From contig CAZKYX010000002.1 of the NCBI GenBank assembly GCA_964557125.1, positions 25,828 to 89,827 of the forward strand: a stretch of 64,000 nt of DNA. The letters run 5' to 3'. Below, in pieces: positions 10,401 through 38,138 of this stretch. Under the pieces are notes generated by a model that did no database searches, was not told where the DNA came from, and was given only the letters and a program-made list of their open reading frames with translations. The translations under genes were made by a program, and so were the position numbers. This DNA comes from an uncultured Gammaproteobacteria bacterium (lineage in GTDB: Bacteria > Patescibacteriota > Microgenomatia > Levybacterales > GWA1-39-11). How positions within the stretch are numbered: position 1 is the first letter of the stretch; the number at the start of each line of letters is the position of its first letter.

Positions 10401-11875
10401 CTGCAAATGCATCATGTGCTCCAAATATCAGAATTGCGGGTAGTGTAACTTCACCATATACCCATAATGCAACTATTACATGCGGAAAGAACTATGCTTA
10501 TAAAGTCACCAGCCAAAATGCGTCCGGCGAATCAGACTTTTCGGCAGATGTAGTGGGTACTACAAGCTCTTGCGCATCTGCCCCAACTGTAGCAACCGAT
10601 ACTGCAACGAGCGTTACCGGTACAACAGCAACGCTTAACTCTACAGTTGATCCAAATAGTCAATCCACAGATATTATTTATAGATATCAGGTAGGTAACA
10701 CATCAACCTGTAACAGTTCAACTCCAAGCACTCAGATAAATGGTCCGACAGGACTTACAGGTACAAACCCGCTTTCCGGAGGTACAACACAACTAGTGCT
10801 TACAGGTTTGACTGAGAATGTGCAATACTCATTCTGTGCAACGGCAAGCAATGGTATAGGAGGTCAACAATATGGTTCGCCTTCACTGCAATTTACAACT
10901 CCAAGGACTTTCTATGACACTTTTACAGGTGCCGATGCTACAAATCTTAGCTCACATGCGCCTGATACAGGTAGTGGTTGGGTTTCACTCATAACGGCTG
11001 GTTCAGCACCCGGAAATACCATTGTAATCAACACTAACAGAATAAGACCGGGGGGAAGTGCAGCGAGTACAGGGTCTGTATACAGAACTACAAGTTCAGC
11101 TGCTGATGCAAACTATAAAGTTATGGCAACTTATTCTGTTGGTTCATCAAGTGATGACTATGTGATCCTTGCTGGTAGGATACAAGATGCGAGCAATATG
11201 TATGCTGGTGAATTCAACAATACACAATCAAGGCTATATAAAAGGGTTAGTGGAACGTGGACACAGCTCGGTGCTACTGGACTTGGTATTGCAACTGGAT
11301 CTATAGTTACCCTTAATCTAACAGGTTCTAGTATTGCCCTTTTGGATGATGGAGTTTCAGTCGTTGAGGCAAATGATGCCGCAATATCTGCTGCCGGATA
11401 CGCAGGTGTTGGATTTGGGGGAGTTATAAATGCGACAGGAGATACGATAACGCACGCTCTTGATAGCTTTGAAATAGGTGATACGCCTTTACCGTGTACT
11501 TCAAGTAGATACCTTGATCTTGATAATGATACATATGGAGCAGGTGCATCAGGATGCTGGGTTCAGAGTTCAACTGTCAATACTGATTGTTACGACTCTA
11601 ATAATCTTGCAAGACCAAATCAAACCTCGTTCTTTGCAGCACATAGAGGAGATAGCAGCTTTGACTATGACTGTGATGGTGGTTCAACAGGAGTAGACAA
11701 TAGTTATGGAACTTTGAATTTCTTTATCTACGACAGTTGCGGTGGTTCAAATCCACATGAGCCAACTTGTGGATCTTCGTCAGTCGAGTTTGTGTCAGGC
11801 CCTGATCAATACAATGATAGATGCTGTTCCCCAGTGTGTAGTGGGAATCTCATATCACAAGTAACCTGTAGATAG
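7442..11875 (+). CDS. Giant secreted Cys-repeat protein (1477 aa)
   Basis: N-terminal TM/signal. Six repeats of DGFARI.F...QC.N..C type. Later DADGDGY / DCYD MopE-like Cys-rich motifs. The start lies 3 nt after the pilin stop. Confidence 0.85.
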   Translation: MNTKDLRMMRTIVVNKKIFIAFFISLVTLFLFVSRGNAFNTNIVNTDLDPFSANPMMAVTIGNNSFAKIVSPRSSANGYGIQYQECSDDACSSRSTTTLSVGRVASVDIANSSGDGFSRILFEDYVNNDLIFVQCQNSQCISNIQTNILNGTAGLGSEGQVEVASDGFARLLYRNQSGNLIFRQCTNAACSTGTSTTVDAGTTASSGRFKIGSDGFARIAFIPARGTIRFFKCTNATCSTKTTTNLSITDANISRIDITSGNLPMILYRDTTTTPTSNDVRLVQCTNDTCGTTTDNLIGSLTDGTYHDEQELFIGNDGFARIFFNTNNGGGTANYYGRFIQCGNAACSSITADNIITGLNNGYELNMVKGNDGYPRLVYRNAPSPQQVIFGQCVNDTCVTPVPTASGQTAVYGGTYTRTSTDNSPWTVNFTAANTNYYQVRTGSTTATGTQVIVGAAANGANSKSINWNATGLVNGSNSLYLFVSGNSGSSWSSNYAFTMLRDDTAPTAATSISTTPGTVSGNYTVTFTPNDAASTGSNEMSYYIRTATGGGGTLLTSSVKTSTSGSPKTTASITTDTLVQGSNTRYVRTCDGANRCTDTSFTVTAGIPPTSVTAVASDPPPVLKSFKNTLKGSANPNGSTARGHFRLYTSVPNCTLDTNGTRVPSSAGNDAVLGAGSSPVAFSVGTTVPLVRQTQYWYCAYADNDAAGQGNPSTAAAAGYQTFTTPDGPAGGCDPATTGDLTITDACTFPATDFDGVDAGGNTNTNTARITLGAGGNVTILAGQKVARGSISFSGGLLTLQNGNGGIIRGGVYLLDADGDGYIDNNTSRYVGIAPPAGYVRRNYLASTTYSGSNYDYASKMYAVSTFDCNTASAIEGVNVANLAVDADQDGYYTGATGTSCVGGTSTVNGRTYYRVADGSYSKIIGSPTGGANAIAGSDCYDNTGEPCKPTINSVGSATQTSLLVTFTAGAGPAATGSALLWCDRTANASCAPNIRIAGSVTSPYTHNATITCGKNYAYKVTSQNASGESDFSADVVGTTSSCASAPTVATDTATSVTGTTATLNSTVDPNSQSTDIIYRYQVGNTSTCNSSTPSTQINGPTGLTGTNPLSGGTTQLVLTGLTENVQYSFCATASNGIGGQQYGSPSLQFTTPRTFYDTFTGADATNLSSHAPDTGSGWVSLITAGSAPGNTIVINTNRIRPGGSAASTGSVYRTTSSAADANYKVMATYSVGSSSDDYVILAGRIQDASNMYAGEFNNTQSRLYKRVSGTWTQLGATGLGIATGSIVTLNLTGSSIALLDDGVSVVEANDAAISAAGYAGVGFGGVINATGDTITHALDSFEIGDTPLPCTSSRYLDLDNDTYGAGASGCWVQSSTVNTDCYDSNNLARPNQTSFFAAHRGDSSFDYDCDGGSTGVDNSYGTLNFFIYDSCGGSNPHEPTCGSSSVEFVSGPDQYNDRCCSPVCSGNLISQVTCR

Positions 11876-15075: not shown

Positions 15076-18000
15076 TCAGTTCACGATTAAATAATTGAAT
15101 TGTATATCCTTATTGATTACGGGGCCTGAGACACCCACAGTAAATGAGCCTGATTCAAACTCTGAGTCTGGCACTTGGCGGAGAAGGTAGAGTACCTTAT
15201 TTTGAGTATCTCCAAATGGGGTAATGTAAATGAGTGAATCCTCCGTTACATTCGGATTATAAATAGTAAGCTCTGGCTTATTCTTCTTGAGTGTTGCAAA
15301 TCCGGCAGAACCGGTAGCTGTTGCTTCAAGGTCTGAGGTTGCATGTGCTTGTCCGACGATATTAAAGTTAAGTTTTGCAAACGTTCCGCTTCCTGAGGCT
15401 GAAAGGGAGCCACGAACGTCTAGTAGGTTGTCTGATGAGATTGCCGCGCTACCGCTCGCAATGACAGAATTGGGGCTTCTTGCAATGACAAGAGCATTAT
15501 CTGCAAGAGGAGAAATGAGGTTTGTGGCTATAGAGTTTGCGGTAAGAATACCATTGAATACCCCATTTTGAGCTGCAATATTTCCTAATACATTTAGGTT
15601 ACCTGCAATGTCCATATTCCCATTGGTATCTATTTTTACGAGTCCCGCTAGGAAGTTGACTCCGCCTTGACGAAGAGGCTGGATTTCAAGGTCAGCTCCG
15701 AGGGTATTGATGGCATTGTCTCCGATAACAAAGCTATCCCCAATTGAGATTTGTTCCATGGCAGTAAGTGAGGTAAAGGTAGCCGGTCCAAGAGCTACAA
15801 TACCTTGCTCAAAAATACCGTAATCGGCCGTTAGATTGCCAACATGCAATGAATCTACATTTCCACTCGCTAAATTGCCAGAAAGGCTAGCCTGCTGCTG
15901 ATTTTGGAGTTGATTGGCGATACGGGTATCAAGCCCGTCAATGTTATTTGCATAAAGCGTTCCTGAGATGGTTGCATCATTTGTAGTAAGACTTCCTGTT
16001 GCAAGACTACCGGAAATACTTGCTGATTCAAAAAGAGCAACCTCAGAAGAGAGGGTGCCACTGAAGCTAGCATCCCCATTATCATTAATTTGTGCAACGA
16101 CCTTACCAGTAGTAGTATTTTTTAGTTTGATATTGTTTGATTCTATATTTAGCGCAATCGTCCCATTATTTCCAGTTGGTGAGATGATATTTGTTCTTAT
16201 TTGCTCAGAGTCTGCAACGGGTGAGGTAAAGTTGCCCGAAGCTAGAAGCTGTGTAACAGTTTGGTTAATATAGTTTTTAAGACTGATCCCAGCAATAGAA
16301 ATGTTTTCAGTTGATATGTTAAGAGATGAAGCCGTTGCATTTCCTAGGTTACTCATTGATGAGTTAAGACTTGAGATAGTACCTGACGCAAAGTTAAAAG
16401 AGTTACCTGTCAACGTGCTAATCGAAGCCGTTGAGGCTTGGAAGGTGTCTGTAATAAGCTCACGAGTATTTACAAGTCCTGACTTAATTTGTGCTACAAA
16501 GACTTTACCGTAGGCCTCCATTTGGTTAACGTTATTATTATTTACATCCTTTAAGACCCACTGACCTGATTCCCTATTAATAGTCAGAGTATTGTAGTAA
16601 GGATCTGCTCCAATATTGTTGTCATTTGCGCTACTTCCATTAACGGTTGGTGGTGGTGCGATATGACCCTTTATAACTCCAGTGTATGTTTTCCACTTAT
16701 CATGGTCAAAGCGGGGAGCCGTAAGTCTGTAAGAAATCTCTACTGGTCTATCTGCAAAGAGGGTAATAGTGCGATTTGCACCGTCTTTTTTATACCATGT
16801 TTTTGCTTGTGAATTGGGAGATAAAAGTACTGATACATTTGAAATATCTGGGTCAATAATACGATTAAATACCCAGTGACCCGACTGGTATTCAAAATGG
16901 TTAAAGTCCAGTTTGTAGGCGTATCCCCCAACCGAATTATCATACCCAAGTACAACTTTACCAGTATATTCTTCCTTTACTCCAACCATTGAAGGCATGT
17001 AAGTAGCGTATCCTTGACCATCAATAGTGTAGGGAGGGTCAACGGTTCCTGCATTAAGTTTTCCGGTTGCTGCAGGTCCAACATCAACCGTTCCATCGTT
17101 AAAGACTCTAAACACATTTTGTCCTGAGCGGCTTGCCGCTATAAGGTCACCTGAGCCTGATGCTTGGTCAACGACGAGGGCGGCGTAGCTGGTTCTACCA
17201 GAGAAGCTTGCAACCGGCCCTGCGTCATTACTAAAGACATTAAGCTTTCCTCCGAATATTGAACCTGTTGGAGATTGCAGCGTGCCTATGTTAACTTTGC
17301 CATTTGAAGTGAGGAAGAGACTTCCTAGATTGTTTGCAGGTTTGAACCAAATATCTCCAGTTGTGGTCCCTCCAAGCACAAGGGTGTTATTTCTTACGGT
17401 TTGGAGTGTTCCATCTCCTCCAATTGAGATACCGTTTCCAGAGCCACCTGAAGCTAGGGTAGCAGAGACCGAGGCAAATGGGGAGGCTGAACCGTTGATA
17501 TTTAGTACTGAAAATTTTGCAGAGCTAGTTGCCTGTGCTCCGATTAATATATCCAATGTATTATTTATGGGAGAGAGAGCGCCAGTATTTGTAGTAATTC
17601 TCCAGTTAGAAGAGCCGCCACCGCCTCCTGCACATGCAACTGTACCTGTAACTATCCCATTTACAACGTCAGATATACAAGTATTACCTCCAGTTACTGC
17701 TGCTCCAAATGTTCCATTCATTCGAAGTCCATTGGTTGAGGAAAGCTGTAAATTCAAAACACCGGAGCCATTTCTCGGTACGATATTTATGTCCCCAGTT
17801 GAACTTCCTCCAAGTACTAGTGTTTGGTTGCGGGTCGATTGTAGGCCGGCAGCTGCATCAACTGCAAAACCTGCAGCAGATGAAGCCGTTCCATCATTTT
17901 TAACTACAAATCTTGTAACGCCTGCTGAGGAGGCAGCAATAATATCATTATTAAGTCCAACTCTATTGATAATAAATCCAGCATTTGAGCCAATTCCGCC

Positions 18001-21000
18001 GGTTACAGAAAGTGCTGCTGGAGTGTTGGTTGATGCTCCAACATATACACCTGTATCAAAATCAGATGACAAAATCAGGTCGCCTGAACCATTGGGCGTA
18101 ATAGTTAGAGGTAGATTTGTGCCCGTTGTAAGGACTGCTGCAGCATTTGAGAATGTTGTTGTTGCTCCTGCAACAGTCAAGTCACCGCCTGCTGTTAGTA
18201 GTCCTGTACCTGTTGTAATTGGTCTATTGGTAGTGGTATTGATTGAAAGGGTTGATGCGTGTGTTAAATTGAGAATTGGACTGGCACCGGTAAGACTAAT
18301 TGTGGTTGAAGCAAGTGAGGTTGTTGAACCATTTACGGTAAGATTTCCACCTAGGGTTGTAAGTCCTGTACCTGTTGTAATTGGTCTATTGGTAGTGGTA
18401 TTGATTGAAAGGGTTGATGCGTGTGTAAGGTCAATTGTTGGACTGTTTCCTGTCAGATTAATAACTGTTGAAGCAAGAGTTGTCGTCGAGCCATTTACTG
18501 AAAGGTTGCCGCCGGTAGTCAAAAGGCCTGTACCCGTCGTTATTGGCCTATTAGTAATCGTGTTAAAGTTAAGTGTACCTGCAACAGCTGTATCAATTAT
18601 TTGGCTTGCACCGGTAAATTGGATAACCTGGCTTGCAAGCTGAGTTACACCCGTAGTGCTCCCTCCAATTGTTAGGGTATTATTTCTGACAGATTGTATG
18701 CTCCCATTTCCTGACAGGTAAATTCCCTTATTTATATCGGTACCTGAAGTTGCAGAGACTGATGCTACAGGTGTAGCTGTACCATTTATATTGAGAACTG
18801 CGAATTTTGCAGAGCTTGAAGATGTGCTTCCAACAAGCAAATCTAAGGTATCGTTAATTGGTGATAATGCTCCGGATGAAAGCCTCCAATTTGAACCTGC
18901 TACACCACCTCCGCATGCACCCCAAGAAGCAGTCGCACCACCGATTAGACATTGTCCTGTGCCCGTTGATGCTGAAAGGGTAATTGGACCGCTTGCAAGA
19001 GTAAGACCGGTAAGACCTGATGCAACTCCTGCAGAGGAAAGATTGATGTTGCCTGCAACATTAAATGCATCATCCGTTTTGAGTGTGTCGCTTGCGGACC
19101 TGTAAAGCGTGACACCATTTGCATCAGTGCCGAACTGAATACCTGCAGCAGTCGTATTTATCTCATCCCAAGTCCCATCGCAGTCAAAACAAATTCCGTA
19201 GTTATTGTCTGCACCTTGTGGGACATCAAGGTATATCGAATATTGGGAAGTTGTCCCCGTTGTATTTGCAAATCCTTCCCACTGGACATTAAGACCATAA
19301 GAATTGACGACGGGTGAGCCTCCGAGTATGAAAGGTGCATCTGGGAGAGCATATAGAGCAGACATATTTACGGTCGTGCTTGTAGCTGCGGTTGTCCAGA
19401 AAGATGTTTCACCAACAATACTTTTTTCTACAATCGTGCCTCCAGAGCCATCACTACTAGCAGAAGCAAACCCATAAATAGCTGTAAGATTTCTGGATCC
19501 ACTTAAGTCTTCAGCTCCGACCGCTGATGAGTAAATCCCATATAGTCTTTCAGTTCCTGAAGATGATGTGGTTGAGACAGCATTTTTAATTCCATAACCA
19601 TTTCTATTAGTACTGCTGCCTGTAAGACTAAGTCCATTTTTGATACCAAAAAACGTGCCCTCATAGGATCCGCTGGTGTTATTGGATAAGTCAATGCCTG
19701 AAAATTCACCGTAGTCGTCTGTTGGTGTATGAGTAAGGTTAAGGTCAAGCAATTGGCCATATGTATCATTAGTAGTAATAGCAGTAGTGATATCTACTGC
19801 TTCTCCTGTAGTAAGAGAATTTGCTGCCAGTGATAATACCGTACCGGTTGTTGATGTGCTTGGGATACTGACAGTTCCTATGCCATCTTTGGGAAGAAGT
19901 ATAATATCTCCTGTTGTTGTGCCCCCCAATGTTAGTGCATTAAAGTCAGTCGATTGGACCGCTCTTCCTACACCTTCAAGTGTGAGATTTCCTGAAATTG
20001 TTGCAAAACCTCCAGCGCTCAAATTGTCATCTGTTCTTAGTGTGTCATTGGCTGCTCTATATAAATTAACCCCATTTGCATCAGTGCCGAATTGTATTCC
20101 TGAACCAACTGTATTTTGGTCCCAAGACCCATCACAGTCGAAGCATAGTCCATAATTATTATCTGCACCCGTTTGGGGTTCTAGGTAAATACCAAAAGCT
20201 GTTGAATTCCCAGTTGTTGAAGTATTAGGTTCAGAGATCATTAATCCGTAAAGTCCAATTGTTCCACCAGTTGTAAGCGAACCCTCGACAAATGCTTGGA
20301 GACCTATCACGTCAATTGTTGCTCCAGTATTATCGCTATCAGTACTATATGCAGAGTGAAAATAACCACCCGTAAGGTATATATTTGCATTTGTGTCACC
20401 TCCTCCATTTGCTAATACAGCAGAATATATTCCCGTTGCACTTCTTTCACCTGTTGATATGCTATTTGTAATATCAAGAGTTGAAGATATGCCGTTAAGG
20501 TTATCACCCAAGTTAGAAGAGTTTTGTATGTAATTTTGTATACCAATTATATCTTTGTTGCTTGCATTGGAGGTTACATTCAGCCGGTTATTTATTCCCA
20601 AAACATCACTATTGGCAATTGTTCCGCTATCATTAGTAGTTAGGTTAAAGCTGCTGAAAAGATCATTTGTTGTTGTTGGGGAGTGGGTAATGTTAATATC
20701 CATCGCGCTTGTATAACCTCCTGTCGTTGGTGAGAATGTACCAGATAAATCAAGAATCTTTCCTGTTTTGAAATTTGCTCCCTGGATAGATAGAGCTGCT
20801 CCAGAGCTGGCATAATAATCAATAAATGTAGAACCTGAAATATAAAGATTATTGTCTAGTGTCGCATCTCCTGAGACAGACAATACATTAGTGGCAAGAC
20901 TTGGTGCATTGACACCTGACGTTTCAATAACTGATAGAGTATCGTCTGTACTTGTAATATATGCAAAATTCTTATTGATAAATACTTGATGAACTTCATT

Positions 21001-24000
21001 CATATTTATTGCACCTACACCATTTTTTATAACAGCAGCTTCAGTTGGCGATACTGGATCTGATATATCTATAAGAGTCAATGAATCGTCTTGGGTACTA
21101 GCTACATATGCATACTTTCCGGATACATAGACTTCATCGGGTGAATTTAGCTCTGTTGCTCCAATACCGTCAGTGATGGTTCCAATTTCCATTGGCGAAA
21201 CTGGATTTGATATATCTATGATAGAAAGTGAGTTTTCGCCAGTCACATACGCATAGTCATCTTCTACATATACAGAAATAGCACCATCCAGTTTAGTAGC
21301 TCCGACACCGTCTTTAATTGTACTAAGTATATTTGGAGAGGCTGGATTGGTTACATCTATTATACTTAAAGAATCATCTATTAAACTTGTTACGTATATA
21401 TATCCGTTGGCAAAGTATAATCCATATGCTGCGTCTAATTCGGATGAAGTCAAAGTTCCAACCTCAGTTGGTGATGATGGGTTGGTCACATCAAATATTG
21501 ATAAAGCATCTTCGTTATCACTTGTTACATACGCATAACCGTTGTTAACAAATACTTTTCTGGCTCCATAAAGTTTTGTTGCTCCAATACCATCTTTTAT
21601 GGTACCTACTTCCGTTGGTGACGTCGGATCGGAGACATCAAATATAGACAGAGCAGCATCTTCATAACTCACAACATATGCATACTTTCCGACAACGAAT
21701 ACACCTGTTGGTTGATCAAGTTCTGTGGCTCCGGCACCATCTGTTATTGTTCCAATTTCAGTAGGGGATGTAGGATCTGATATATCTATAATTGATAGAG
21801 AATCTTCGCCAGTCACATATGCATAGCTTCGAGATATATAAACATCTTGTATTCCAGATAGTTTTGTTGCTCCCGCTCCTTCGGTTATGGTACCAACTTG
21901 AGATAGGTGAGGTGTTATTAATAAACCGCCACCAGCTATTGTAAGCTTTTTTGTAGGATTGATTGTGCCAATTCCGATATTTCCTCCTGATCCATTTTGA
22001 GGCATGACAATGAGATTGCCACTGATAGACGCAATGGCTGGACCTGTACCGTTCATATTTAGCACTGCAAATTTGGCGCTGGTAGTTGACTGTGCGCCAA
22101 GCAGAAAGTCTTGTGTTATATTCCCAGGTACAATTGCGCCTAAATTAGTTGTAAATGGTGAGTCTGTCCCCCCAGCAGAGCATGATCCCCAAGTGGGAGT
22201 TGTCCCTCCCAAAAGACATTGCGTACCTGTCCCGGCCGCCGCTTGATATACCTGTCCTGAGGCATTAGCGTAGATAATTCCACCGCTTTGCCCAGTAAAG
22301 GAGGATACATTTAATATTGAGCTAACCGTAACGTTTTCAGCAGTAAGAGTGCCGGCATTATCAAGCGTGACAGATCCAAGTATTGAGCCATTGGTAGTTC
22401 TGCTGAGCGTTGTCGAGGTATTGCCACTTGAAAGGGTGAAATAATCAGTTGCATCAGCGGTATTTGTGACTCTTAATGTGCCATTAACATCAAGCGTTGA
22501 GAGTGGAGAGCTGGTATTAATTCCAACATAACCTCCCGCATTGCGAGGGAGAAGTGCTATGTTACCAGTGGTGCTTCCTCCAAGACTAAGTGTGTTGTTT
22601 CGGGTCGTTTGAAGAGAGCCATCCCCTCCAAGAACTAATGCTTGTCCACCAGCATTTTGTGCTGAAACTGATGCAGTGGGTACTGTAGAACCGTTAATGT
22701 TGAGCACTGCAAATTTGGCACTTGTTGTTGCCTGAGAACCGAGAAGAAAATCTACCGTGGAATTAACTGGGACGATTGTGCCGGAAAGTACTTGGAAAGG
22801 TGAATTTGGTCCACTGGCACCGCAGCCGGTACAACCGGATGTAACGTTAAGCGTTGCAAAGGTTCCATTCCCACTCGAATCGATTATGGTAGAGCCTCCA
22901 ACGAGAAGACCACCTGAAACCAAATTGAAAGAATCACCACTTGAAAGATCAATCCTGTTGGCAGCTCCTCTAAAAAGCTGTGCGTCACCACCTAGTACTA
23001 TCCCTCCCGTTGAGCCTGTAATGGGGAGCTGAAATTGTCCCGCTTGAGTAAGTCTTGAGAGCTCAGTTGATACATTTTGAAATATAAAGTCAGCGTTGCT
23101 GGCACCCATTGTTTGAAAGGTAAGAGAGGTAATACCGCTGGTTTTTTGATTTTGAACAAGATAGGGGTCAACAATATCAGCAGTTATTTTTCCGCCACCA
23201 TTAGCTCCAACTATCAAATTGCCATTATTATCAATTCGAAGAACCGTTCTTCCGGCTTGGCTTGCTACAATAATGTCACCAATGCCTGCATTATCAACAA
23301 GAAGAGAGGCAAATGAAGAGCGTGCAGAAATTGAGGCAGTTCCCGTCGTGCCCGTCAGTCCTCTTACATCAAGTGCCAACTTAGTAAAGGGGGATGAGGT
23401 ATTAATACCAATTCTTCCGTCATTGGCAATAAAGAGGCGAGAGATTAGTCCGGCATCCCCTTGACCTGTGGAAGCGGTTTGGAAATTAAGGCTTCCCCCA
23501 TTGAGAACATTAAATAGAGCAGAAGGGGCAGAGCCTGTTGGCACTTGAAGAGAAAGATTGCCGGAAAATGAGGCTGTAGGGGTTCCTCCTGTGTTAATTC
23601 CAGTAAAGGCAATTTTGGCTGTTGAGGTAGCAACACCTCCTATTAGCAAATCAAGTGTGTCATTGATAGGGGATAGTGCACCATTGGTAAGTCTGAAAAA
23701 GCTACTTCCACCGCTGCCGCTTCCCATTTGGGTCCAAGATGTACCGTTGCAGTAGTAGTAGGTATTTGCGGGCCCGTCATAATACATTCTTCCGGCAGTT
23801 GCAACAGCACAGGCTCCGGCATCTGATTGGATGGATGGACCAAGTGATAAAGTTGATGAAATAGAGGCTGTTCCAGCTACATCAAGGGTAAAGTTGGCTG
23901 TTCTTTTACCGATAGCTACATTTCCATTGGTATCAATTACAAATTTTGTTGTTCCGCCTTGGCTAGCAGTAAAGATATCTCCCCCCACACTTTGATTGTT

Positions 24001-25887
24001 AACGATAAATGCGGCTGTTGCTGATTCTGAGGCCAATACAGCAAATTTGTCATCAATTTCTACAGCTCCTTGGCTGATGTTGCCAGTCGTACCAAGATTT
24101 ATCAGCGGCTTTTCAAGATCAATTTTTCCCAGCCCATCAGGTATTAGGATAATATTTCCACCAGATGATGAATTAGTTGCCAAGACAAGCGGTTGTCCGG
24201 ACAGCTTAAATTGACCTCCTGATGCGGTAAAAGTAGGAGCAGCACTTCCGCCGATTGTAAGATTTCCTGATGCATCTAAGGCCAAAACAACATTGGTGGT
24301 TGCAGCGGTTCCAGTAATAGGCGGAAGGCCTTGTAAGAATTCTGAGTTGGTAGCATAGGCAACTGTTGCTATTCTTTGCCGAGGGGTTAGCTCAGGTGTT
24401 GAGGCTATAGTAACACCAAGCCATGTATTTATGTTGTCAGAGAATACCGTTGTTGGGATAACCGTACCATTTCCAAGAATTACTGAGAATATACCGTCTT
24501 GATCTGGTGTAACACTGGTGAGTACCTCCTGCCAGAGGAGTGCGGCTCCAGATGCGGAAGCATCATCGTAAATAGCAAAACGAATATTTGTCGAAGTTGT
24601 TATAGGATTGTCTAAGTTATCAGTAAGCCTTCCTTGAAATGACAAAACACGAGGTGGAGCAACAGGTGCAGCGAAAGATGGCAGTATGTCTTTGTTACCA
24701 ACAAGGTTTTGGTACAGTGCAATCCCCACCCCTGAGGCAAAGACTATCAATATTGCAAAATGAAGGTAGTGGGAAAATGTATAGGTATGATATTTTTTGT
24801 ACCAATCTGGTCTGGTATGACGCATATGATGCCATATTCTTTTGTGAAAAGGGGAGCCTTGAAGCTGAATTGCTTGAGGTGCATAAAACTCTTTTTTAAT
24901 ATTGCGTATTCCAAGTAGATCGTGAAGTTTTAACTTTCTTTGAAACTCTAAGACTTTTTTTGCGTTAAGGGTTTTTTGTGCAACGTTAAGAGGTAGCGTG
25001 TTAAGCGCCTTCTTGCCAGTTATCATAAGCGCTATTGCCTGCGCTGTTTTTTCTTCAAAAAGAAGATAGGGGAGAACAAGGGTTTTTTGAAGGAGTCTAA
25101 GGGGGGCAAATTTTGAATAAGAGATACTGACTGGTTCATTTACCGCTGCTGTTTTTGTTTTGATGTCAGATAGCGCTATGGTTGGCTCAACAGCTTCAAG
25201 TTTTGCTTCAACTGAGGACAGTATTATTTCTTGTGGAGAAATGAGATTTTGCTTGGTAGCAAATTCCAGATATCGTCTGAGAGAGGAGAGCTTGCGATTG
25301 ATGGTTCTTGGAGCAGCTCCTTGGATATCAAGAAGTCTTTTTTTGTAACCATCCAATACCTCTTGGTTAATATGATAAAAATTTGCCTGCTTTGTTAATG
25401 GATTTTCAAGAGTTGGTAGGACTGCGGTTTCAAACCATCTGGCAAAATTTTGTATGTCATTGATATAGTTCTTTATAGTTAGATGCGATGAGCCAAAGAC
25501 ATAGAGGTAGTCTTTAAAATCTTGGATATGCCAGAGATCGGGTTGTAGGTTGTAGGTTGTAGGTTGTAGCAAGAAGGGATTTGCTTCAATTACCTTTTCT
25601 TTCACAAGCATTGTGCTCAGTTTGCGAATGGAGGATATGTGTCGGTTGATTGAACGTAGCGATATGCCTTCTTGCACAACTCCGTATTTGATAGCCCCAC
25701 CTTGTGTCTGCTTGTAGAGCTGAATAGTATCCTCTGAAATGTCGGTTGGGCTAATTGTTCTTCCAGTTGTCCTTTCAAACCACTGAATAAAATGGCGAAT
25801 ATCAGAAAGATAATTTTTTAAGGTGATTGGTGATACCTTTTTCTTTTCTGAAAGTAGTTGTGATTTAAAGAATTCTAGTAGTTCCAT
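15076..25887 (-). CDS. Giant surface protein (3603 aa): two N-terminal integrase SAM-like domains, a TM, then repeat-rich ectodomain with LVIVD-type repeats
   Basis: N-terminal ITLKNYLSDIRHFIQWF and LTIKNYINDIQNFARWF...RTINRKLSSLRRYL. TM YLHFAILIVFASGVGIALY. Eight repeats of LSIIDISDPTSPTEIGT type. Recurrent SAKFAVLNINGS modules. Confidence 0.9.
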   Translation of the reverse strand: MELLEFFKSQLLSEKKKVSPITLKNYLSDIRHFIQWFERTTGRTISPTDISEDTIQLYKQTQGGAIKYGVVQEGISLRSINRHISSIRKLSTMLVKEKVIEANPFLLQPTTYNLQPDLWHIQDFKDYLYVFGSSHLTIKNYINDIQNFARWFETAVLPTLENPLTKQANFYHINQEVLDGYKKRLLDIQGAAPRTINRKLSSLRRYLEFATKQNLISPQEIILSSVEAKLEAVEPTIALSDIKTKTAAVNEPVSISYSKFAPLRLLQKTLVLPYLLFEEKTAQAIALMITGKKALNTLPLNVAQKTLNAKKVLEFQRKLKLHDLLGIRNIKKEFYAPQAIQLQGSPFHKRIWHHMRHTRPDWYKKYHTYTFSHYLHFAILIVFASGVGIALYQNLVGNKDILPSFAAPVAPPRVLSFQGRLTDNLDNPITTSTNIRFAIYDDASASGAALLWQEVLTSVTPDQDGIFSVILGNGTVIPTTVFSDNINTWLGVTIASTPELTPRQRIATVAYATNSEFLQGLPPITGTAATTNVVLALDASGNLTIGGSAAPTFTASGGQFKLSGQPLVLATNSSSGGNIILIPDGLGKIDLEKPLINLGTTGNISQGAVEIDDKFAVLASESATAAFIVNNQSVGGDIFTASQGGTTKFVIDTNGNVAIGKRTANFTLDVAGTASISSTLSLGPSIQSDAGACAVATAGRMYYDGPANTYYYCNGTSWTQMGSGSGGSSFFRLTNGALSPINDTLDLLIGGVATSTAKIAFTGINTGGTPTASFSGNLSLQVPTGSAPSALFNVLNGGSLNFQTASTGQGDAGLISRLFIANDGRIGINTSSPFTKLALDVRGLTGTTGTASISARSSFASLLVDNAGIGDIIVASQAGRTVLRIDNNGNLIVGANGGGKITADIVDPYLVQNQKTSGITSLTFQTMGASNADFIFQNVSTELSRLTQAGQFQLPITGSTGGIVLGGDAQLFRGAANRIDLSSGDSFNLVSGGLLVGGSTIIDSSGNGTFATLNVTSGCTGCGASGPNSPFQVLSGTIVPVNSTVDFLLGSQATTSAKFAVLNINGSTVPTASVSAQNAGGQALVLGGDGSLQTTRNNTLSLGGSTTGNIALLPRNAGGYVGINTSSPLSTLDVNGTLRVTNTADATDYFTLSSGNTSTTLSRTTNGSILGSVTLDNAGTLTAENVTVSSILNVSSFTGQSGGIIYANASGQVYQAAAGTGTQCLLGGTTPTWGSCSAGGTDSPFTTNLGAIVPGNITQDFLLGAQSTTSAKFAVLNMNGTGPAIASISGNLIVMPQNGSGGNIGIGTINPTKKLTIAGGGLLITPHLSQVGTITEGAGATKLSGIQDVYISRSYAYVTGEDSLSIIDISDPTSPTEIGTITDGAGATELDQPTGVFVVGKYAYVVSYEDAALSIFDVSDPTSPTEVGTIKDGIGATKLYGARKVFVNNGYAYVTSDNEDALSIFDVTNPSSPTEVGTLTSSELDAAYGLYFANGYIYVTSLIDDSLSIIDVTNPASPNILSTIKDGVGATKLDGAISVYVEDDYAYVTGENSLSIIDISNPVSPMEIGTITDGIGATELNSPDEVYVSGKYAYVASTQDDSLTLIDISDPVSPTEAAVIKNGVGAINMNEVHQVFINKNFAYITSTDDTLSVIETSGVNAPSLATNVLSVSGDATLDNNLYISGSTFIDYYASSGAALSIQGANFKTGKILDLSGTFSPTTGGYTSAMDINITHSPTTTNDLFSSFNLTTNDSGTIANSDVLGINNRLNVTSNASNKDIIGIQNYIQNSSNLGDNLNGISSTLDITNSISTGERSATGIYSAVLANGGGDTNANIYLTGGYFHSAYSTDSDNTGATIDVIGLQAFVEGSLTTGGTIGLYGLMISEPNTSTTGNSTAFGIYLEPQTGADNNYGLCFDCDGSWDQNTVGSGIQFGTDANGVNLYRAANDTLRTDDNLSAGGFATISGNLTLEGVGRAVQSTDFNALTLGGTTTGDIILLPKDGIGTVSIPSTSTTGTVLSLAANSLTTGEAVDITTAITTNDTYGQLLDLNLTHTPTDDYGEFSGIDLSNNTSGSYEGTFFGIKNGLSLTGSSTNRNGYGIKNAVSTTSSSGTERLYGIYSSAVGAEDLSGSRNLTAIYGFASASSDGSGGTIVEKSIVGETSFWTTAATSTTVNMSALYALPDAPFILGGSPVVNSYGLNVQWEGFANTTGTTSQYSIYLDVPQGADNNYGICFDCDGTWDEINTTAAGIQFGTDANGVTLYRSASDTLKTDDAFNVAGNINLSSAGVASGLTGLTLASGPITLSASTGTGQCLIGGATASWGACGGGVAGSNWRLSSGALSPINDTLDLLVGSTSSSSAKFAVLNINGTATPVASVSATSGTDINKGIYLSGNGSIQSVRNNTLTIGGSTTGVTQLASQVIQFTGASQIIDTAVAGTLNFNTITNRPITTGTGLLTTGGNLSVNGSTTTLASTVINLTGNSPTIDLTHASTLSINTTTNRPITTGTGLTTLGGNLTVNGSTTSLASTTISLTGASPILNLTHASTLSINTTTNRPITTGTGLLTAGGDLTVAGATTTFSNAAAVLTTGTNLPLTITPNGSGDLILSSDFDTGVYVGASTNTPAALSVTGGIGSNAGFIINRVGLNNDIIAASSAGVTRFVVKNDGTASSAAGFAVDAAAGLQSTRNQTLVLGGSSTGDINIVPRNGSGVLNLQLSSTNGLRMNGTFGAAVTGGNTCISDVVNGIVTGTVACAGGGGGSSNWRITTNTGALSPINNTLDILIGAQATSSAKFSVLNINGSASPFASVSATLASGGSGNGISIGGDGTLQTVRNNTLVLGGTTTGDIWFKPANNLGSLFLTSNGKVNIGTLQSPTGSIFGGKLNVFSNDAGPVASFSGRTSYAALVVDQASGSGDLIAASRSGQNVFRVFNDGTVDVGPAATGKLNAGTVDPPYTIDGQGYATYMPSMVGVKEEYTGKVVLGYDNSVGGYAYKLDFNHFEYQSGHWVFNRIIDPDISNVSVLLSPNSQAKTWYKKDGANRTITLFADRPVEISYRLTAPRFDHDKWKTYTGVIKGHIAPPPTVNGSSANDNNIGADPYYNTLTINRESGQWVLKDVNNNNVNQMEAYGKVFVAQIKSGLVNTRELITDTFQASTASISTLTGNSFNFASGTISSLNSSMSNLGNATASSLNISTENISIAGISLKNYINQTVTQLLASGNFTSPVADSEQIRTNIISPTGNNGTIALNIESNNIKLKNTTTGKVVAQINDNGDASFSGTLSSEVALFESASISGSLATGSLTTNDATISGTLYANNIDGLDTRIANQLQNQQQASLSGNLASGNVDSLHVGNLTADYGIFEQGIVALGPATFTSLTAMEQISIGDSFVIGDNAINTLGADLEIQPLRQGGVNFLAGLVKIDTNGNMDIAGNLNVLGNIAAQNGVFNGILTANSIATNLISPLADNALVIARSPNSVIASGSAAISSDNLLDVRGSLSASGSGTFAKLNFNIVGQAHATSDLEATATGSAGFATLKKNKPELTIYNPNVTEDSLIYITPFGDTQNKVLYLLRQVPDSEFESGSFTVGVSGPVINKDIQFNYLIVN
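25541..25568. repeat. (GGTTGTA)4 heptamer array inside the giant CDS
   Basis: Encodes LQPTTYNLQP in the linker between the two SAM-like domains. The same array is intergenic at 40914 and, as its complement, at 42281. Confidence 0.85.
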
Positions 25888-35036: not shown

Positions 35037-38000
35037 ATGGAAGACAAAAACACAGAGAACAAATACAATCCACAAGAAATTGAGGCTAAATGGCAGGAGA
35101 AGTGGGAGTCTGATAAGACTTTTAGTATGGATATGGATAGGGCAGAAAACCCCTTTTATAACCTCATGATGTTCCCATACCCCTCAGCTGAAGGTCTTCA
35201 TGTAGGAAATATGTATGCTTTTACAGGGGCTGATGTGTATGCAAAATTCATGCGCATGCAAGGAAAGGATGTTCTTGAGCCTATTGGGCTTGATGGGTTT
35301 GGCATTCACTCTGAGAATTACGCCATAAAAATTGGTCGTCACCCAAAAGAACAGTCAAAAAGCGCAGAGAAGAACTTTTACCGCCAACTAAAATCTATTG
35401 GAAATTCTTTTGATTGGGATAGAACAGTTGAGACCTATAGCCCTGATTATTATAAATGGACCCAGTGGCTTTTTACTGAAATGTTCCGTAAAGGGCTTGC
35501 TTACCGTAAAACGGCCCTCGTCAACTGGTGTCCAAAAGATTTAACTGTATTGTCAGATGAGCAAGTTATTGATGGTGAATGCGAGAGGTGCAGTACAAAA
35601 GTTGAGAAGCGTGACCTTGAACAGTGGTTCTTTAGAATAACAAGCTATGCTGACAGGCTTTTAGATGGGCTTGAGAATATTGATTGGACTGAAAAGGTGA
35701 AGACAGCCCAGCGCAACTGGATAGGGAAAAGTGAGGGTGCGCAGATTGATTTTCCTGTTCTTGAGGATAGAAATTTTGTACTGTTGCATGGCTATACCGG
35801 CTCAGTTGAGGCTAATTTCTTTCCATGGCTCAAAGAGAAGCTCTCAAAAGTAAGTACTTCAGTTTGGGCTGAGAATTTGCCTCACACCAACGCACCTGAT
35901 GTAGAAAAACAAGCTCAATTTGTGCTTGATAATGCTCGTTTTGATGAGAATACAGTACTTTTAGGACATAGCTTGGGAGCTGCAGTTGCGCTTAAGGTAG
36001 TTGAGAAGCTGAAGAGCCCCATAAAAAAGCTGGTGCTTGCAGCTGGCTTCATGCAGCCCGGATTTACAGACCATGCACGGCCATTTGAGGCTAGCTTTCA
36101 TTGGGAATTTGATAGTGAAGCTATAAAGAAAAATGTGGAGGAAATAATTATCCTGCGAGCTTCAAATGACTACGCTATCCCAGCAGAACGAGCTGATTAC
36201 ATAAAATCCCAAATTGGAGGAACAATTATTGATTTTGAGGCTGAAGATGAGCATATATGTGGTGAAATTGAGCCCATTGTTCTTGACAGTCTTTGTGCAC
36301 GTCTTAAAGTCTTTACTACAAGACCAGATACCCTTTTTGGGGCTACTTTTATGGTAATAGCCCCAGAGCATCCGTTGGTTGAGGCAATGGTACATGGTAA
36401 ATGGTCAATGGCAAATACTGATGAGGTCAAAAAGTACGTAGAAGAAGTTGCCGGAAAGAGTGATATTGAGAGAACCCATGCGGCAAGCTCAGGGCAAGCA
36501 GGTTCAGCGGAGGAGAAAACAGGGGTTGATTCCGGTCTTTTTGTGCTCAATCCCGCGAATATGAAAAAAATTCCAATATGGGTGGCAGATTACGTCTTGG
36601 CTGGCTATGGGACGGGCGCCATAATGGCAGTTCCCGCTCATGACCAGAGAGACTTCGCGACTGCTAAGAAGTATGGTCTACCGATTGTCCCAGTAATTCA
36701 ACCAAAACAACCAAATGAATATAATCCAACTGAGGAGCCATATATAGGTAACGGGGAGATTATAGGCTCTGATGAGTGGAATGGTTTTCACGCGCCAAAA
36801 GATATGGGGAAAGTCATAAGTTGGCTTGAAGAAAAGGGAATTGGCCTCAAAAAGAGTAACTATCATCTTCGGGATTGGCTTATTTCAAGGCAGAGATACT
36901 GGGGGGCTCCAATTCCTATGATTTATTGTGAAGACTGTGCAAAGAGATACAAAGGTCAAGTAGAAAATATGCCCGGTTGGTATGCGGAAAAGCCTGAAAA
37001 TTTGCCCGTTCTGCTTCCGGACGTGCAAAATTGGAGACCTGAGGGGACAGGCAGCTCTCCATTAGCCTCACACCCCGAATTTTATGAGACTACTTGCCCT
37101 GAATGTAAGGGAAAAGCTCGACGAGAAACAGATGTGTCTGATACATTTTTAGATAGTTCGTGGTATTTTTTAAGATATCCATCAACTGATATAGAAAACA
37201 ATGCTTTTGATATAGAAAGGACAAGGAAGTGGCTACCGGTTAATATGTACATTGGCGGAGCTGAGCACAGTGTATTACACCTCTTGTATTCACGTTTTGT
37301 CACAATGGTATTGAAAGATTTGGGATTGGTAGAGTTTGACGAACCATTTACAAAGTTCTTTGCTCACGGGCTTATCATCAAAGATGGTGCAAAGATGAGT
37401 AAAAGCAAGGGAAATGTAGTTGTTCCAGACGAATATATAAGAAAATATGGGGCTGATAGCCTGAGAGCATACTTAATGTTTTTGGGAGCTTATTCTGATG
37501 GTGGAGATTTTCGAGATAGTGGAATAGATGGAATGCATAAATTCTTGAGAAAAGTATGGAAGTTACTTTCAAATGTCACTGCGAGCGATAGCACGGCAGT
37601 CTTTGAGGATGCAGACAAGCTTAAATTTATGCACAAAACCATCAAAAGAGTCACCAAAGACATTGGGGAATTTGGGTACAACACTGCTATTGCAGGTCTT
37701 ATGGAATGGTATAACTTCCTTATCAAACAGTTAACAATTGACAAGCAACAATTAACTAGGGAGGAGACGGAAGTATTTTTGAAGCTTTTGGCGCCTTTCG
37801 CGCCTCATATGACTGAAGAGCTGTGGCAACAAACTCAGATTACAGATTACAGACGACAGATTACAGAATCTCAGAAATCAGAGATCGGAAATCAGAAATC
37901 TATTCATTTGGAAAAGTGGCCTGAATTTGAGGAAAAATATCTCGTGTCATCAACTGCGCTTATTATCGTTCAGGTAAATGGTAAAAAGCGGGGAGAGTTG

Positions 38001-38138
38001 ACAGTTGACAGTTCACAGTTAACAGTTAACAAAGAGATTGAAGAGATGGGTAAGGAGATAGCAGCAAAATATCTTGAAGGTAATGAAGTCAAGAAAACAA
38101 TCTACGTAAAAGGAAAGATACTTAATTTTGTTATATAG
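35037..38138 (+). CDS. leuS: Leucyl-tRNA synthetase with an inserted alpha/beta-hydrolase-like domain and heptamer-encoded C-terminal inserts
   Basis: HVGN (HIGH-type), KMSKSKGN, TTRPDT editing motif, RDWLISRQRYWG. Total length 1033 aa against about 800-860 aa typical. Confidence 0.95.
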   Translation: MEDKNTENKYNPQEIEAKWQEKWESDKTFSMDMDRAENPFYNLMMFPYPSAEGLHVGNMYAFTGADVYAKFMRMQGKDVLEPIGLDGFGIHSENYAIKIGRHPKEQSKSAEKNFYRQLKSIGNSFDWDRTVETYSPDYYKWTQWLFTEMFRKGLAYRKTALVNWCPKDLTVLSDEQVIDGECERCSTKVEKRDLEQWFFRITSYADRLLDGLENIDWTEKVKTAQRNWIGKSEGAQIDFPVLEDRNFVLLHGYTGSVEANFFPWLKEKLSKVSTSVWAENLPHTNAPDVEKQAQFVLDNARFDENTVLLGHSLGAAVALKVVEKLKSPIKKLVLAAGFMQPGFTDHARPFEASFHWEFDSEAIKKNVEEIIILRASNDYAIPAERADYIKSQIGGTIIDFEAEDEHICGEIEPIVLDSLCARLKVFTTRPDTLFGATFMVIAPEHPLVEAMVHGKWSMANTDEVKKYVEEVAGKSDIERTHAASSGQAGSAEEKTGVDSGLFVLNPANMKKIPIWVADYVLAGYGTGAIMAVPAHDQRDFATAKKYGLPIVPVIQPKQPNEYNPTEEPYIGNGEIIGSDEWNGFHAPKDMGKVISWLEEKGIGLKKSNYHLRDWLISRQRYWGAPIPMIYCEDCAKRYKGQVENMPGWYAEKPENLPVLLPDVQNWRPEGTGSSPLASHPEFYETTCPECKGKARRETDVSDTFLDSSWYFLRYPSTDIENNAFDIERTRKWLPVNMYIGGAEHSVLHLLYSRFVTMVLKDLGLVEFDEPFTKFFAHGLIIKDGAKMSKSKGNVVVPDEYIRKYGADSLRAYLMFLGAYSDGGDFRDSGIDGMHKFLRKVWKLLSNVTASDSTAVFEDADKLKFMHKTIKRVTKDIGEFGYNTAIAGLMEWYNFLIKQLTIDKQQLTREETEVFLKLLAPFAPHMTEELWQQTQITDYRRQITESQKSEIGNQKSIHLEKWPEFEEKYLVSSTALIIVQVNGKKRGELTVDSSQLTVNKEIEEMGKEIAAKYLEGNEVKKTIYVKGKILNFVI

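Follow-up and report, generated by a model that had tools for sequence, protein, structure and literature searches.

The stretch of DNA analyzed here (hereafter the window) spans 64,000 nucleotides (nt) of contig CAZKYX010000002.1 and contains leuS, a complete gene for a bacterial-type leucyl-tRNA synthetase (LeuRS) in which a serine hydrolase domain of the YdeN/RBBP9 type is embedded. Located at 35037..38138 on the plus strand (coordinates that include the stop codon), the gene is one unbroken frame of 1033 codons with a single terminal stop and zero ambiguous bases. The encoded protein of 1033 amino acids (aa) scores 868.3 bits against the TIGR00396 leuS_bact model (cutoff 548.4), the match being broken into three stretches because of the insert. 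All of its parts lie on the plus strand. The N-terminal half of the catalytic (Rossmann) core and the first strand of the CP1 hairpin occupy aa 1-241 (35037..35759; PF09334/PF00133 matches) and include the HVGN (HIGH-type) signature at aa 55-58 (35199-35210). The hydrolase follows at aa 242-421 (35760..36299), as supported by PF06821, AlphaFold2 (AF2), Foldseek and a profile comparison with sequences in the PDB. The remainder of the CP1 editing domain covers aa 422-640 (36300..36956; PF13603, 192 bits, profile 21-185), with the T-rich motif TTRPDT at aa 427-432 (36315-36332) and the CP1 motif HDQRD at aa 535-539 (36639-36653; Asp536/Asp539). Finally, the C-terminal half of the catalytic core with the anticodon-binding and C-terminal domains extends over aa 641-1033 (36957..38135; PF00133, PF08264) and holds KMSKS at aa 786-790 (37392-37406). 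In an alignment of 57 homologues, H55, G57 and K786-S790 are invariant. With the same 57 sequences as input, the full-length AF2 model reached a predicted local distance difference test score (pLDDT) of 85.0 and a predicted template modeling score (pTM) of 0.76. A Foldseek search with this model returned LeuRS structures only, including those of Thermus thermophilus and Escherichia coli, with E-values between 1e-71 and 1e-76 and target-normalized template modeling (TM) scores of 0.80-0.84 for 2BTE, 4AQ7 and 5OMW. The preliminary description of the locus had called the enzyme otherwise canonical, and the three signatures it named—HVGN, KMSKS and TTRPDT—are in place at checked coordinates. Judged by its sequence, the host is thus a bona fide bacterial-type LeuRS, with leucylation and post-transfer editing as its predicted activities.

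The hydrolase domain and its place in CP1

The insert does not lie just before CP1, as had been proposed, but inside the first hairpin of that domain. In an alignment with T. thermophilus (Tt) LeuRS, aa 225-241 of the window protein correspond to Tt residues 220-236 and aa 421-448 to Tt residues 241-268; Tt residues 236 and 241 flank the 180-residue block, which therefore replaces a 4-residue β-turn. The Pfam editing-domain model picks up at profile position 21 directly after the insert, and the same model runs continuously (1-183) in P0021, a relative that carries the hydrolase at another place. The split of the editing-domain profile and the Tt alignment therefore position the insert within the first β-hairpin of CP1, a few residues upstream of the T-rich motif. 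The strands of this hairpin span aa 231-242 and 422-427 in the full-length AF2 model, in which the first strand of the hydrolase begins at aa 246 and its last helix ends at aa 419. The linkers are therefore very short, with approximately 3 and 2 residues, and together with the pTM of 0.76 they imply that the hydrolase, as modeled, would be held at a fixed position on CP1. The junctions read FPV/LEDRNF and SLCA/RLKVF, and the GC content of the insert (0.42-0.43) is the same as that of the remaining leuS gene, without a break in composition.

Profile, fold and fold-search evidence agree on the identity of the insert. When aa 242-421 were scanned alone, the PF06821 Ser_hydrolase model matched with 40.4 bits (E 3.7e-10; cutoff 22), and the score was 35.7 bits against the same cutoff when the whole LeuRS protein was used; the further Pfam matches of the insert were exclusively to several families of the abhydrolase clan. 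AF2 folded the insert alone with a pLDDT of 94.5 and a pTM of 0.92, and Foldseek placed the resulting model next to YdeN (1UXO, TM 0.81) and human RBBP9 (TM 0.79-0.82), with a root-mean-square deviation of 2.3-2.5 Å for most chains. A sequence profile of the insert searched against PDB sequences recovered the same two proteins (YdeN, E 4e-25; RBBP9, E 7e-17). By profile, fold and catalytic triad, the insert is a bona fide PF06821 member, and its earlier assignment to the small YdeN/RBBP9-type α/β hydrolases, with Ser, Asp and His in the expected order, is borne out. The nucleophile elbow G-H-S-L-G with Ser312 is encoded at 35964..35978, the predicted catalytic acid Asp378 (invariant in alignment A1) at 36168..36170 and the predicted catalytic His406 (invariant in alignments A2, A4 and A6) at 36252..36254. 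When approximately 130 domain copies were aligned, almost every one embedded in a synthetase showed the x-H-S-x-G elbow and the His, and nearly all free-standing copies adjacent to leuS had the elbow as well. As catalytic acid, most homologues have Asp; a subset, aligned with less certainty, apparently has Glu instead. The HG oxyanion motif is kept in nearly all embedded copies. The triad is thus conserved among homologous inserts, and the embedded hydrolase is apparently catalytically active.

The embedded copies also share a distinctive predicted substrate loop after strand β6 (aa 341-359, PGFTDHARPFEASFHWEFD; 36057..36113), with the motif P-x-F-x-D-x-x-R-P-F...F-D-W-x-F-D plus a 3-residue insertion. 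This motif is present in copies embedded in aminoacyl-tRNA synthetases and absent from the YdeN-like outgroup. In sequence, the loop aligns with that of RBBP9 bearing the α-amine anchor Glu108; in the insert, that loop is replaced by the clade-specific motif containing D, H, R and E residues, at a place where the alignment is uncertain. Of the other anchor residues of RBBP9, Ser76 corresponds to Leu in the insert and Tyr99 to Phe. Among 47 insert-bearing LeuRS, mean pairwise identity was 0.70 for the N-terminal core, 0.69 for the C-terminal core, 0.57 for CP1, 0.49 for the insert and 0.45 for the anticodon and C-terminal region. The insert falls between CP1 and the last of these, and is therefore under constraint like a recognized functional domain.

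Other identities for the block were considered and rejected. No Hint or intein domain was matched by Pfam in the LeuRS, and the terminal residues of inteins (N-terminal Cys/Ser; C-terminal His-Asn followed by Cys/Ser/Thr) are missing at both junctions, as had been stated before; with the composition break also absent, an intein or mobile element is ruled out. Likewise, no homology of the insert to the CP1, YbaK/tRNA_edit, AlaX/tRNA_SAD or Dtd folds was found, its structural neighbours all being α/β hydrolases. An artefact in the form of a chimeric assembly or a mis-joined reading frame has a negligible chance of being correct, given the smooth composition and the independent assemblies with recurrent junctions. 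The identical 1033-aa protein occurs on contigs assembled from two different runs (SRR10931997 and SRR10932013), three more 1033-aa members of the same cluster at ≥90% identity lie on ENA/NCBI contigs of 22-103 kb, and the same in-frame junctions recur in more than 100 homologous loci from unrelated projects. A further candidate was a split LeuRS, suggested by proteins without the N-terminal half that begin with the hydrolase (P0008, P0009, P0015, P0043 and P0093). It was dropped on the DNA of P0008 (L087:3224-6694), where the LeuRS N-half lies in frame directly upstream and the NCBI start had been mis-called at the hydrolase junction. In the P0156 cluster, a near-identical LeuRS copy is called as two genes on the same 22,299-nt ENA contig, P0279 (201 aa) and P0276 (818 aa); this call probably reflects a frameshift or sequencing error and not a real split.

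Distribution across synthetases and gene neighbourhoods

A phmmer scan with the insert as query, run exhaustively over 1.84 billion cluster representatives, gave 1304 matches at E≤1e-3, of which 258 reached E≤1e-10 and 31 reached E≤1e-30. Searching a word index with the same query was insensitive and found only 7 proteins, the window's own not among them. Nearly all of the long phmmer matches mapped on the window protein were LeuRS, nearly all long hosts were synthetases, and the hydrolase was present in 67 of the 120 best full-length LeuRS matches. A pattern scan of GTDB with one genome per species found relatives in at least 182 species, and its best 80 loci were broken down by architecture. 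In approximately 56 of these, the order is that of the window, with N-half, hydrolase, CP1 and C-half in one frame (site A), and in 14 the hydrolase stands just after CP1 (N-half, CP1, hydrolase, C-half; site B), such that both sites flank CP1 in sequence. The rest comprised five isoleucyl-tRNA synthetases (IleRS), four free-standing genes and one non-synthetase locus of candidate division SR1. A metagenome scan gave the same picture. The domain is therefore common in public genomes of the candidate phyla radiation (CPR) and of DPANN archaea—the carriers being mostly Patescibacteria/CPR, with some genuine DPANN members. The nearest named relatives of the window LeuRS are 'Candidatus Levybacteria/Levyibacteriota', which have the comEA-comEC-MBL order downstream of leuS in common with the window. 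Its source is therefore most probably an ultra-small CPR bacterium of the Microgenomates group.

Hosts other than LeuRS include a valyl-tRNA synthetase (ValRS, P0050), an alanyl-tRNA synthetase (AlaRS, P0061) with the hydrolase between its catalytic and editing domains, one UvrA-like protein and a glycyl-tRNA synthetase (GlyRS, L099:3824-6667) with an N-terminal Ser_hydrolase and a His_Phos_1 phosphatase domain. The GlyRS rules out the notion that the partner is always an editing synthetase. In the IleRS hosts (1176-1759 aa; L051:4345-9621, L080:398-5104, L048:5314-9789, L060:112-3378, L057:5254-9678 and L117:3284-6811), the hydrolase lies ahead of the CP1-like region. Additional enzyme domains often share a host with it, namely NUDIX (inside CP1 or at site A), GNAT, low-molecular-weight (LMW) phosphatase and His_Phos_1. 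The most in one host were the four extra domains of the 1759-aa IleRS of L051, with LMW phosphatase (LMWPc), NUDIX and two hydrolase copies; other IleRS carry GNAT (L048), NUDIX (L060) or both LMW phosphatase and His_Phos_1 (L080). P0075 combines GNAT with the hydrolase, and the LeuRS of L036 has two NUDIX copies and the hydrolase at site A. Many related LeuRS, whether or not they have the hydrolase, also carry a NUDIX domain within CP1, at a place corresponding to aa ~556-569 of the window protein. Examples are a 957-aa LeuRS (L004:5533-8406), P0017, P0008 and P0125, and approximately 26 of the 80 GTDB loci (e.g., L009, L012, L016 and L049); NUDIX was confirmed by Pfam in four of these proteins, the others being assigned from a gap of ~450 nt at the same place. 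The SR1 locus (L070:5428-6705, with in-frame TGA under genetic code 25) encodes a non-synthetase protein of 426 aa in which two tandem hydrolase copies come after a YidD-like N-terminus.

Moreover, the hydrolase is linked to LeuRS both by fusion and by gene neighbourhood. Look-ups and the scans yielded eight free-standing close homologues with approximately 40-55% identity to the insert. For six of them, leuS is the next gene downstream on the same strand, 5 to ~240 nt away (L001, L004, L088, L102/L111, L142 and L145); the one in L088 (3106-4173) is archaeal and sits in an rpoD-L18e-L13-S9-rpoN context. Another belongs to a tight same-strand cluster (L144:3501-7549) with two hydrolases of 182 and 192 aa, a YbaK-like tRNA_edit protein of 162 aa, a Ham1-like NTP pyrophosphatase of 205 aa and leuS. 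This leuS is archaeal-type, and the link between hydrolase and LeuRS therefore holds where no insertion history explains it. The sole exception is P0013, with no adjoining synthetase. More distant free-standing YdeN-like genes, at ~30% identity, occupy unrelated contexts with no adjoining aminoacyl-tRNA synthetase. In a rough neighbor-joining tree of the hydrolase copies, indicative only, classical YdeN-like proteins fall outside, most site-B copies and most IleRS copies form groups of their own, and the leuS-adjacent free copies are scattered among site-A copies. A second free-standing hydrolase paralogue was seen ~1.1 kb upstream of a LeuRS with an embedded copy (L021:3726-4208 and L105:1708-2190; Nanoarchaeota-labelled contig). 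The LeuRS of the DPANN carrier L010 (5308-8313) is bacterial-type (TIGR00396 913 bits vs 229 for leuS_arch), with genes for a tRNA-intron endonuclease and TFIIE-alpha in its neighbourhood; this contig and that of L088 imply transfer between CPR bacteria and DPANN archaea.

The state of CP1 and the phylogeny of the hosts bear on what the domain contributes. Across the 57 aligned LeuRS, the T-rich and HDxRD motifs show little or no variation, and the CP1 motifs are intact in the other hydrolase-bearing loci, L071 being the sole exception. Replacement of a decayed CP1 by the hydrolase is accordingly ruled out, and the intact motifs indicate that the hydrolase adds to CP1. A degenerate T-rich motif, with the rest of CP1 still aligning, was seen in L071 (site B; YDSIPQT) and in the insert-less P0240 (TFSAHFEAFYADT), two lineages whose LeuRS may, from these residues, be editing-defective. 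Insert-less relatives have an ordinary short turn at the insertion site and share the synteny of the window. That they keep the hydrolase as a neighbouring gene is ruled out for P0185, P0187 and P0203, which were inspected over 4 kb around leuS.

Among other features of the window, no tRNA or Rfam match was found within it. A giant open reading frame of 3602 aa (15076-25887, minus strand) has LVIVD repeats and an unexpected N-terminal phage-integrase SAM-like domain, and one of 1477 aa (7442-11875, plus strand) has zero Pfam matches.

Possible roles of the embedded hydrolase

The reading that we favor, although we would put it slightly below an even chance, is that the insert is an accessory aminoacyl-(thio)ester hydrolase functionally coupled to LeuRS. 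A catalytically competent PF06821 hydrolase would be grafted by short linkers onto the tip of the first β-hairpin of CP1, acting in cis in the window LeuRS and in trans where a separate gene lies immediately upstream of leuS. It would cleave an α-aminoacyl ester or thioester with a free amine, made or handled by the synthetase, with mis-acylated tRNA(Leu), leaked aminoacyl-adenylate and homocysteine thiolactone as candidate substrates. This would supplement the intact CP1 site, without replacing it, by a further step of proofreading or clearance. For this we infer enzyme activity, the identity of the substrate and a hydrolase site within reach of the tRNA 3' end or of released intermediates. 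RBBP9 chemistry, together with the fusion and neighbourhood evidence, leads to this reading, and the conserved triad, the constraint on the insert, the short linkers and the clade-specific motif of the predicted substrate loop count in its favor. RBBP9 requires a free α-amine and forms aminoacyl-Ser adducts with Leu/Ile, Met, Phe, Tyr and Trp, whereas N-acetylated substrates are not cleaved (PMC8866121). It has also been reported as a hydrolase of valacyclovir, an L-valyl ester (Shenoy et al. 2020, as listed among the references of PMC7730578). The extra deacylation or proofreading role raised in the preliminary description finds real support in the gene fusion and in the conserved neighbourhood, which includes a YbaK-like deacylase and archaeal-type leuS.

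Several observations nevertheless weigh against this reading. Of the hosts, GlyRS is a synthetase without an editing function, and NUDIX, GNAT, LMW-phosphatase and His_Phos_1 domains at the same sites look more like a permissive cargo site than a proofreading design. The CP1 motifs are intact and leave no evident gap to fill. A tree of the hosts alone places insert-less LeuRS within groups of insert-bearing ones at least four times, and no hydrolase gene was found within 4 kb of leuS in the three insert-less cases named above; the module is therefore accessory and dispensable, having been repeatedly lost or gained. We know of no aminoacyl-tRNA editing factor with an α/β-hydrolase fold. Additionally, the Ser76 that binds the amine in RBBP9 is Leu in the insert and Glu108 has no clearly aligned equivalent, and the established activity of RBBP9 is that of an aminopeptidase, not a tRNA deacylase (PMC8866121).

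The main rival to an aminoacyl-(thio)ester hydrolase is an active passenger enzyme that acts on a substrate unrelated to aminoacylation and resides in the permissive CP1 hairpin and linker loops of class I synthetases—with small housekeeping enzymes of streamlined CPR/DPANN genomes riding on an essential, constitutively expressed gene. Unrelated small enzyme families do occur at the same sites, sometimes stacked (L051, L036 and P0075), the hosts include the non-editing GlyRS and the UvrA-like protein, in the SR1 locus the fusion partner is YidD-like and not a synthetase, and clean loss or gain has recurred in close relatives with nothing nearby compensating. We still hold such a passenger to be unlikely: it leaves unexplained why seven of the eight free-standing members belong to leuS clusters, including the one with archaeal-type leuS and a YbaK-like deacylase, and why distant YdeN-like genes do not adjoin leuS, and the exhaustive search brought up very few long hosts other than synthetases. 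A role in amino-acid supply would have an RBBP9-like aminopeptidase or aminoacyl-ester hydrolase free N-terminal aliphatic residues from scavenged peptides, feeding the attached synthetase. CPR and DPANN organisms are largely auxotrophic, and all synthetase hosts found are specific for Leu, Ile, Val, Ala or Gly, amino acids that are aliphatic or small. RBBP9 itself is an aminopeptidase with Leu/Ile and Met adducts that needs a free α-amine (PMC8866121), but the predicted substrate loop of the insert differs from that of RBBP9. The freed amino acid would moreover diffuse off, a fixed place beside CP1 gives no clear benefit, and neither the NUDIX and phosphatase domains inserted alongside nor the YbaK/Ham1 neighbours fit such a role; we rate supply as distinctly improbable.

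A more specialized function, in which the esterase and the NUDIX or phosphatase inserts clean the tRNA 3' end or serve counter-defence, seems to us very unlikely. N-acylated aminoacyl groups, phosphates or pyrophosphates left by toxins or damage would be stripped from the acceptor end, after which the tRNA could be recharged. Esterase, NUDIX, LMW phosphatase and His_Phos_1 are indeed found together on synthetases, every one of which binds the CCA end, and the hydrolase flanks CP1, the domain that receives the 3' end. The proposal is purely inferential, however: inserted GNAT domains fit it poorly, no toxin or defence genes were seen beside the loci whose neighbourhoods were examined, and N-acetylated substrates are not cleaved by RBBP9 (PMC8866121). 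Least probable of these roles, with only a slim chance, is a non-catalytic module, its fold kept for structure, regulation or protein binding and its triad a relic. Altered elbows in a few homologues (GFDLG in P0023, AESFS in P0045) and a few uncertain acid positions are in its favor, yet almost all embedded copies, even deeply diverged ones, keep Ser, His and the HG oxyanion motif, and the domain is conserved to a degree comparable to that of the catalytic LeuRS domains.

Beyond the window LeuRS, it is possible, albeit rather doubtful, that the YdeN/RBBP9-type clade constitutes an unrecognized α/β-hydrolase factor for aminoacyl-tRNA or adenylate quality control. As an insert, such a factor would operate in cis, placed beside CP1 in LeuRS, IleRS and ValRS and before the editing domain in AlaRS; where its gene precedes leuS, it would operate in trans. 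It would then belong to a broader CPR/DPANN practice of loading 'sanitizing' enzymes (esterase, NUDIX, phosphatases and GNAT) onto synthetases. Few enzymes have been studied as much as aminoacyl-tRNA synthetases and their editing domains, and every proofreading module known to us belongs to a handful of folds. A conserved, apparently active hydrolase that sits on CP1 in LeuRS, recurs in five synthetases and exists as a leuS-linked gene in two domains of life would represent either a new proofreading or clearance chemistry or an unnoticed packaging of enzymes by minimal-genome symbionts. Natural insert-less sister enzymes exist for comparison with the insert-bearing LeuRS. The matter also concerns annotation: NCBI/JGI names of the carriers are mostly plain 'leucine--tRNA ligase', the full LeuRS P0242 is called 'alpha/beta fold hydrolase', and at least one start is mis-called at the junction.

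Comparison with known systems

The preliminary description knew of no LeuRS with this architecture. On the literature this stands, as no publication on a serine hydrolase in or beside LeuRS or any synthetase was found among open-access papers and preprints; it is, however, not a one-off, given the second insertion site and the four other synthetases. What is new is thus a widespread group of uncharacterized synthetases bearing a serine hydrolase, while synthetases with an extra catalytic domain were already known (NCBIfam NF040702) and the sequences themselves were public.

The closest relatives by family are YdeN of Bacillus subtilis (PDB 1UXO) and human RBBP9 (PDB 2QS9/7OEX), with which the insert shares membership of PF06821, a fold similarity of TM ~0.81, a minimal α/β-hydrolase core of ~180 aa, the HG oxyanion motif and the same order of Ser, Asp and His. 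Both of these are free-standing, whereas the window hydrolase is an internal domain of a synthetase, and the embedded clade differs from them in its own β6-loop motif with the 3-residue insertion and in the Leu at the position of RBBP9 Ser76. RBBP9, an aromatic aminopeptidase (PMC8866121), is the only biochemically characterized PF06821 member documented for this comparison. In proposed function, the insert resembles CP1 and the trans-editing factors YbaK/ProXp, AlaX and Dtd, which share with it the suggested hydrolysis of a wrongly made aminoacyl ester. Like them, the hydrolase is found as part of synthetases and also as an independent gene, and one free-standing copy clusters with a YbaK-like protein and leuS (L144). 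It differs from these modules in its predicted covalent Ser-His-Asp mechanism, in a fold unrelated to CP1, YbaK and AlaX, and in having an intact CP1 beside it.

Within the wider superfamily, BPHL (a valacyclovirase and homocysteine thiolactonase) and the aminoacyl-phosphatidylglycerol hydrolases are α/β hydrolases that cleave aminoacyl esters or thioesters. These α-amino-acid ester hydrolases would offer a precedent for aminoacyl (thio)ester cleavage by likeness, the only trace of them in the insert being a weak match to PF06057 VirJ (E 0.03). Precedents for the fusion itself come from two systems. ErdS, given in PMC8913301 as an AspRS-DUF2156 protein in which a synthetase is joined to an enzyme that uses aminoacyl-tRNA, exemplifies a synthetase fused to an enzyme acting on aminoacyl groups. 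NF040702 ('ileS_w_GNAT', IleRS with an N-acetyltransferase) is a curated prokaryotic class I synthetase with an extra enzyme domain, and an IleRS that combines GNAT with the YdeN/RBBP9-type hydrolase was found in L048. The window protein, with 47.5 bits against a cutoff of 1999, is not a member of NF040702, from which it differs in both the host synthetase and the inserted enzyme.

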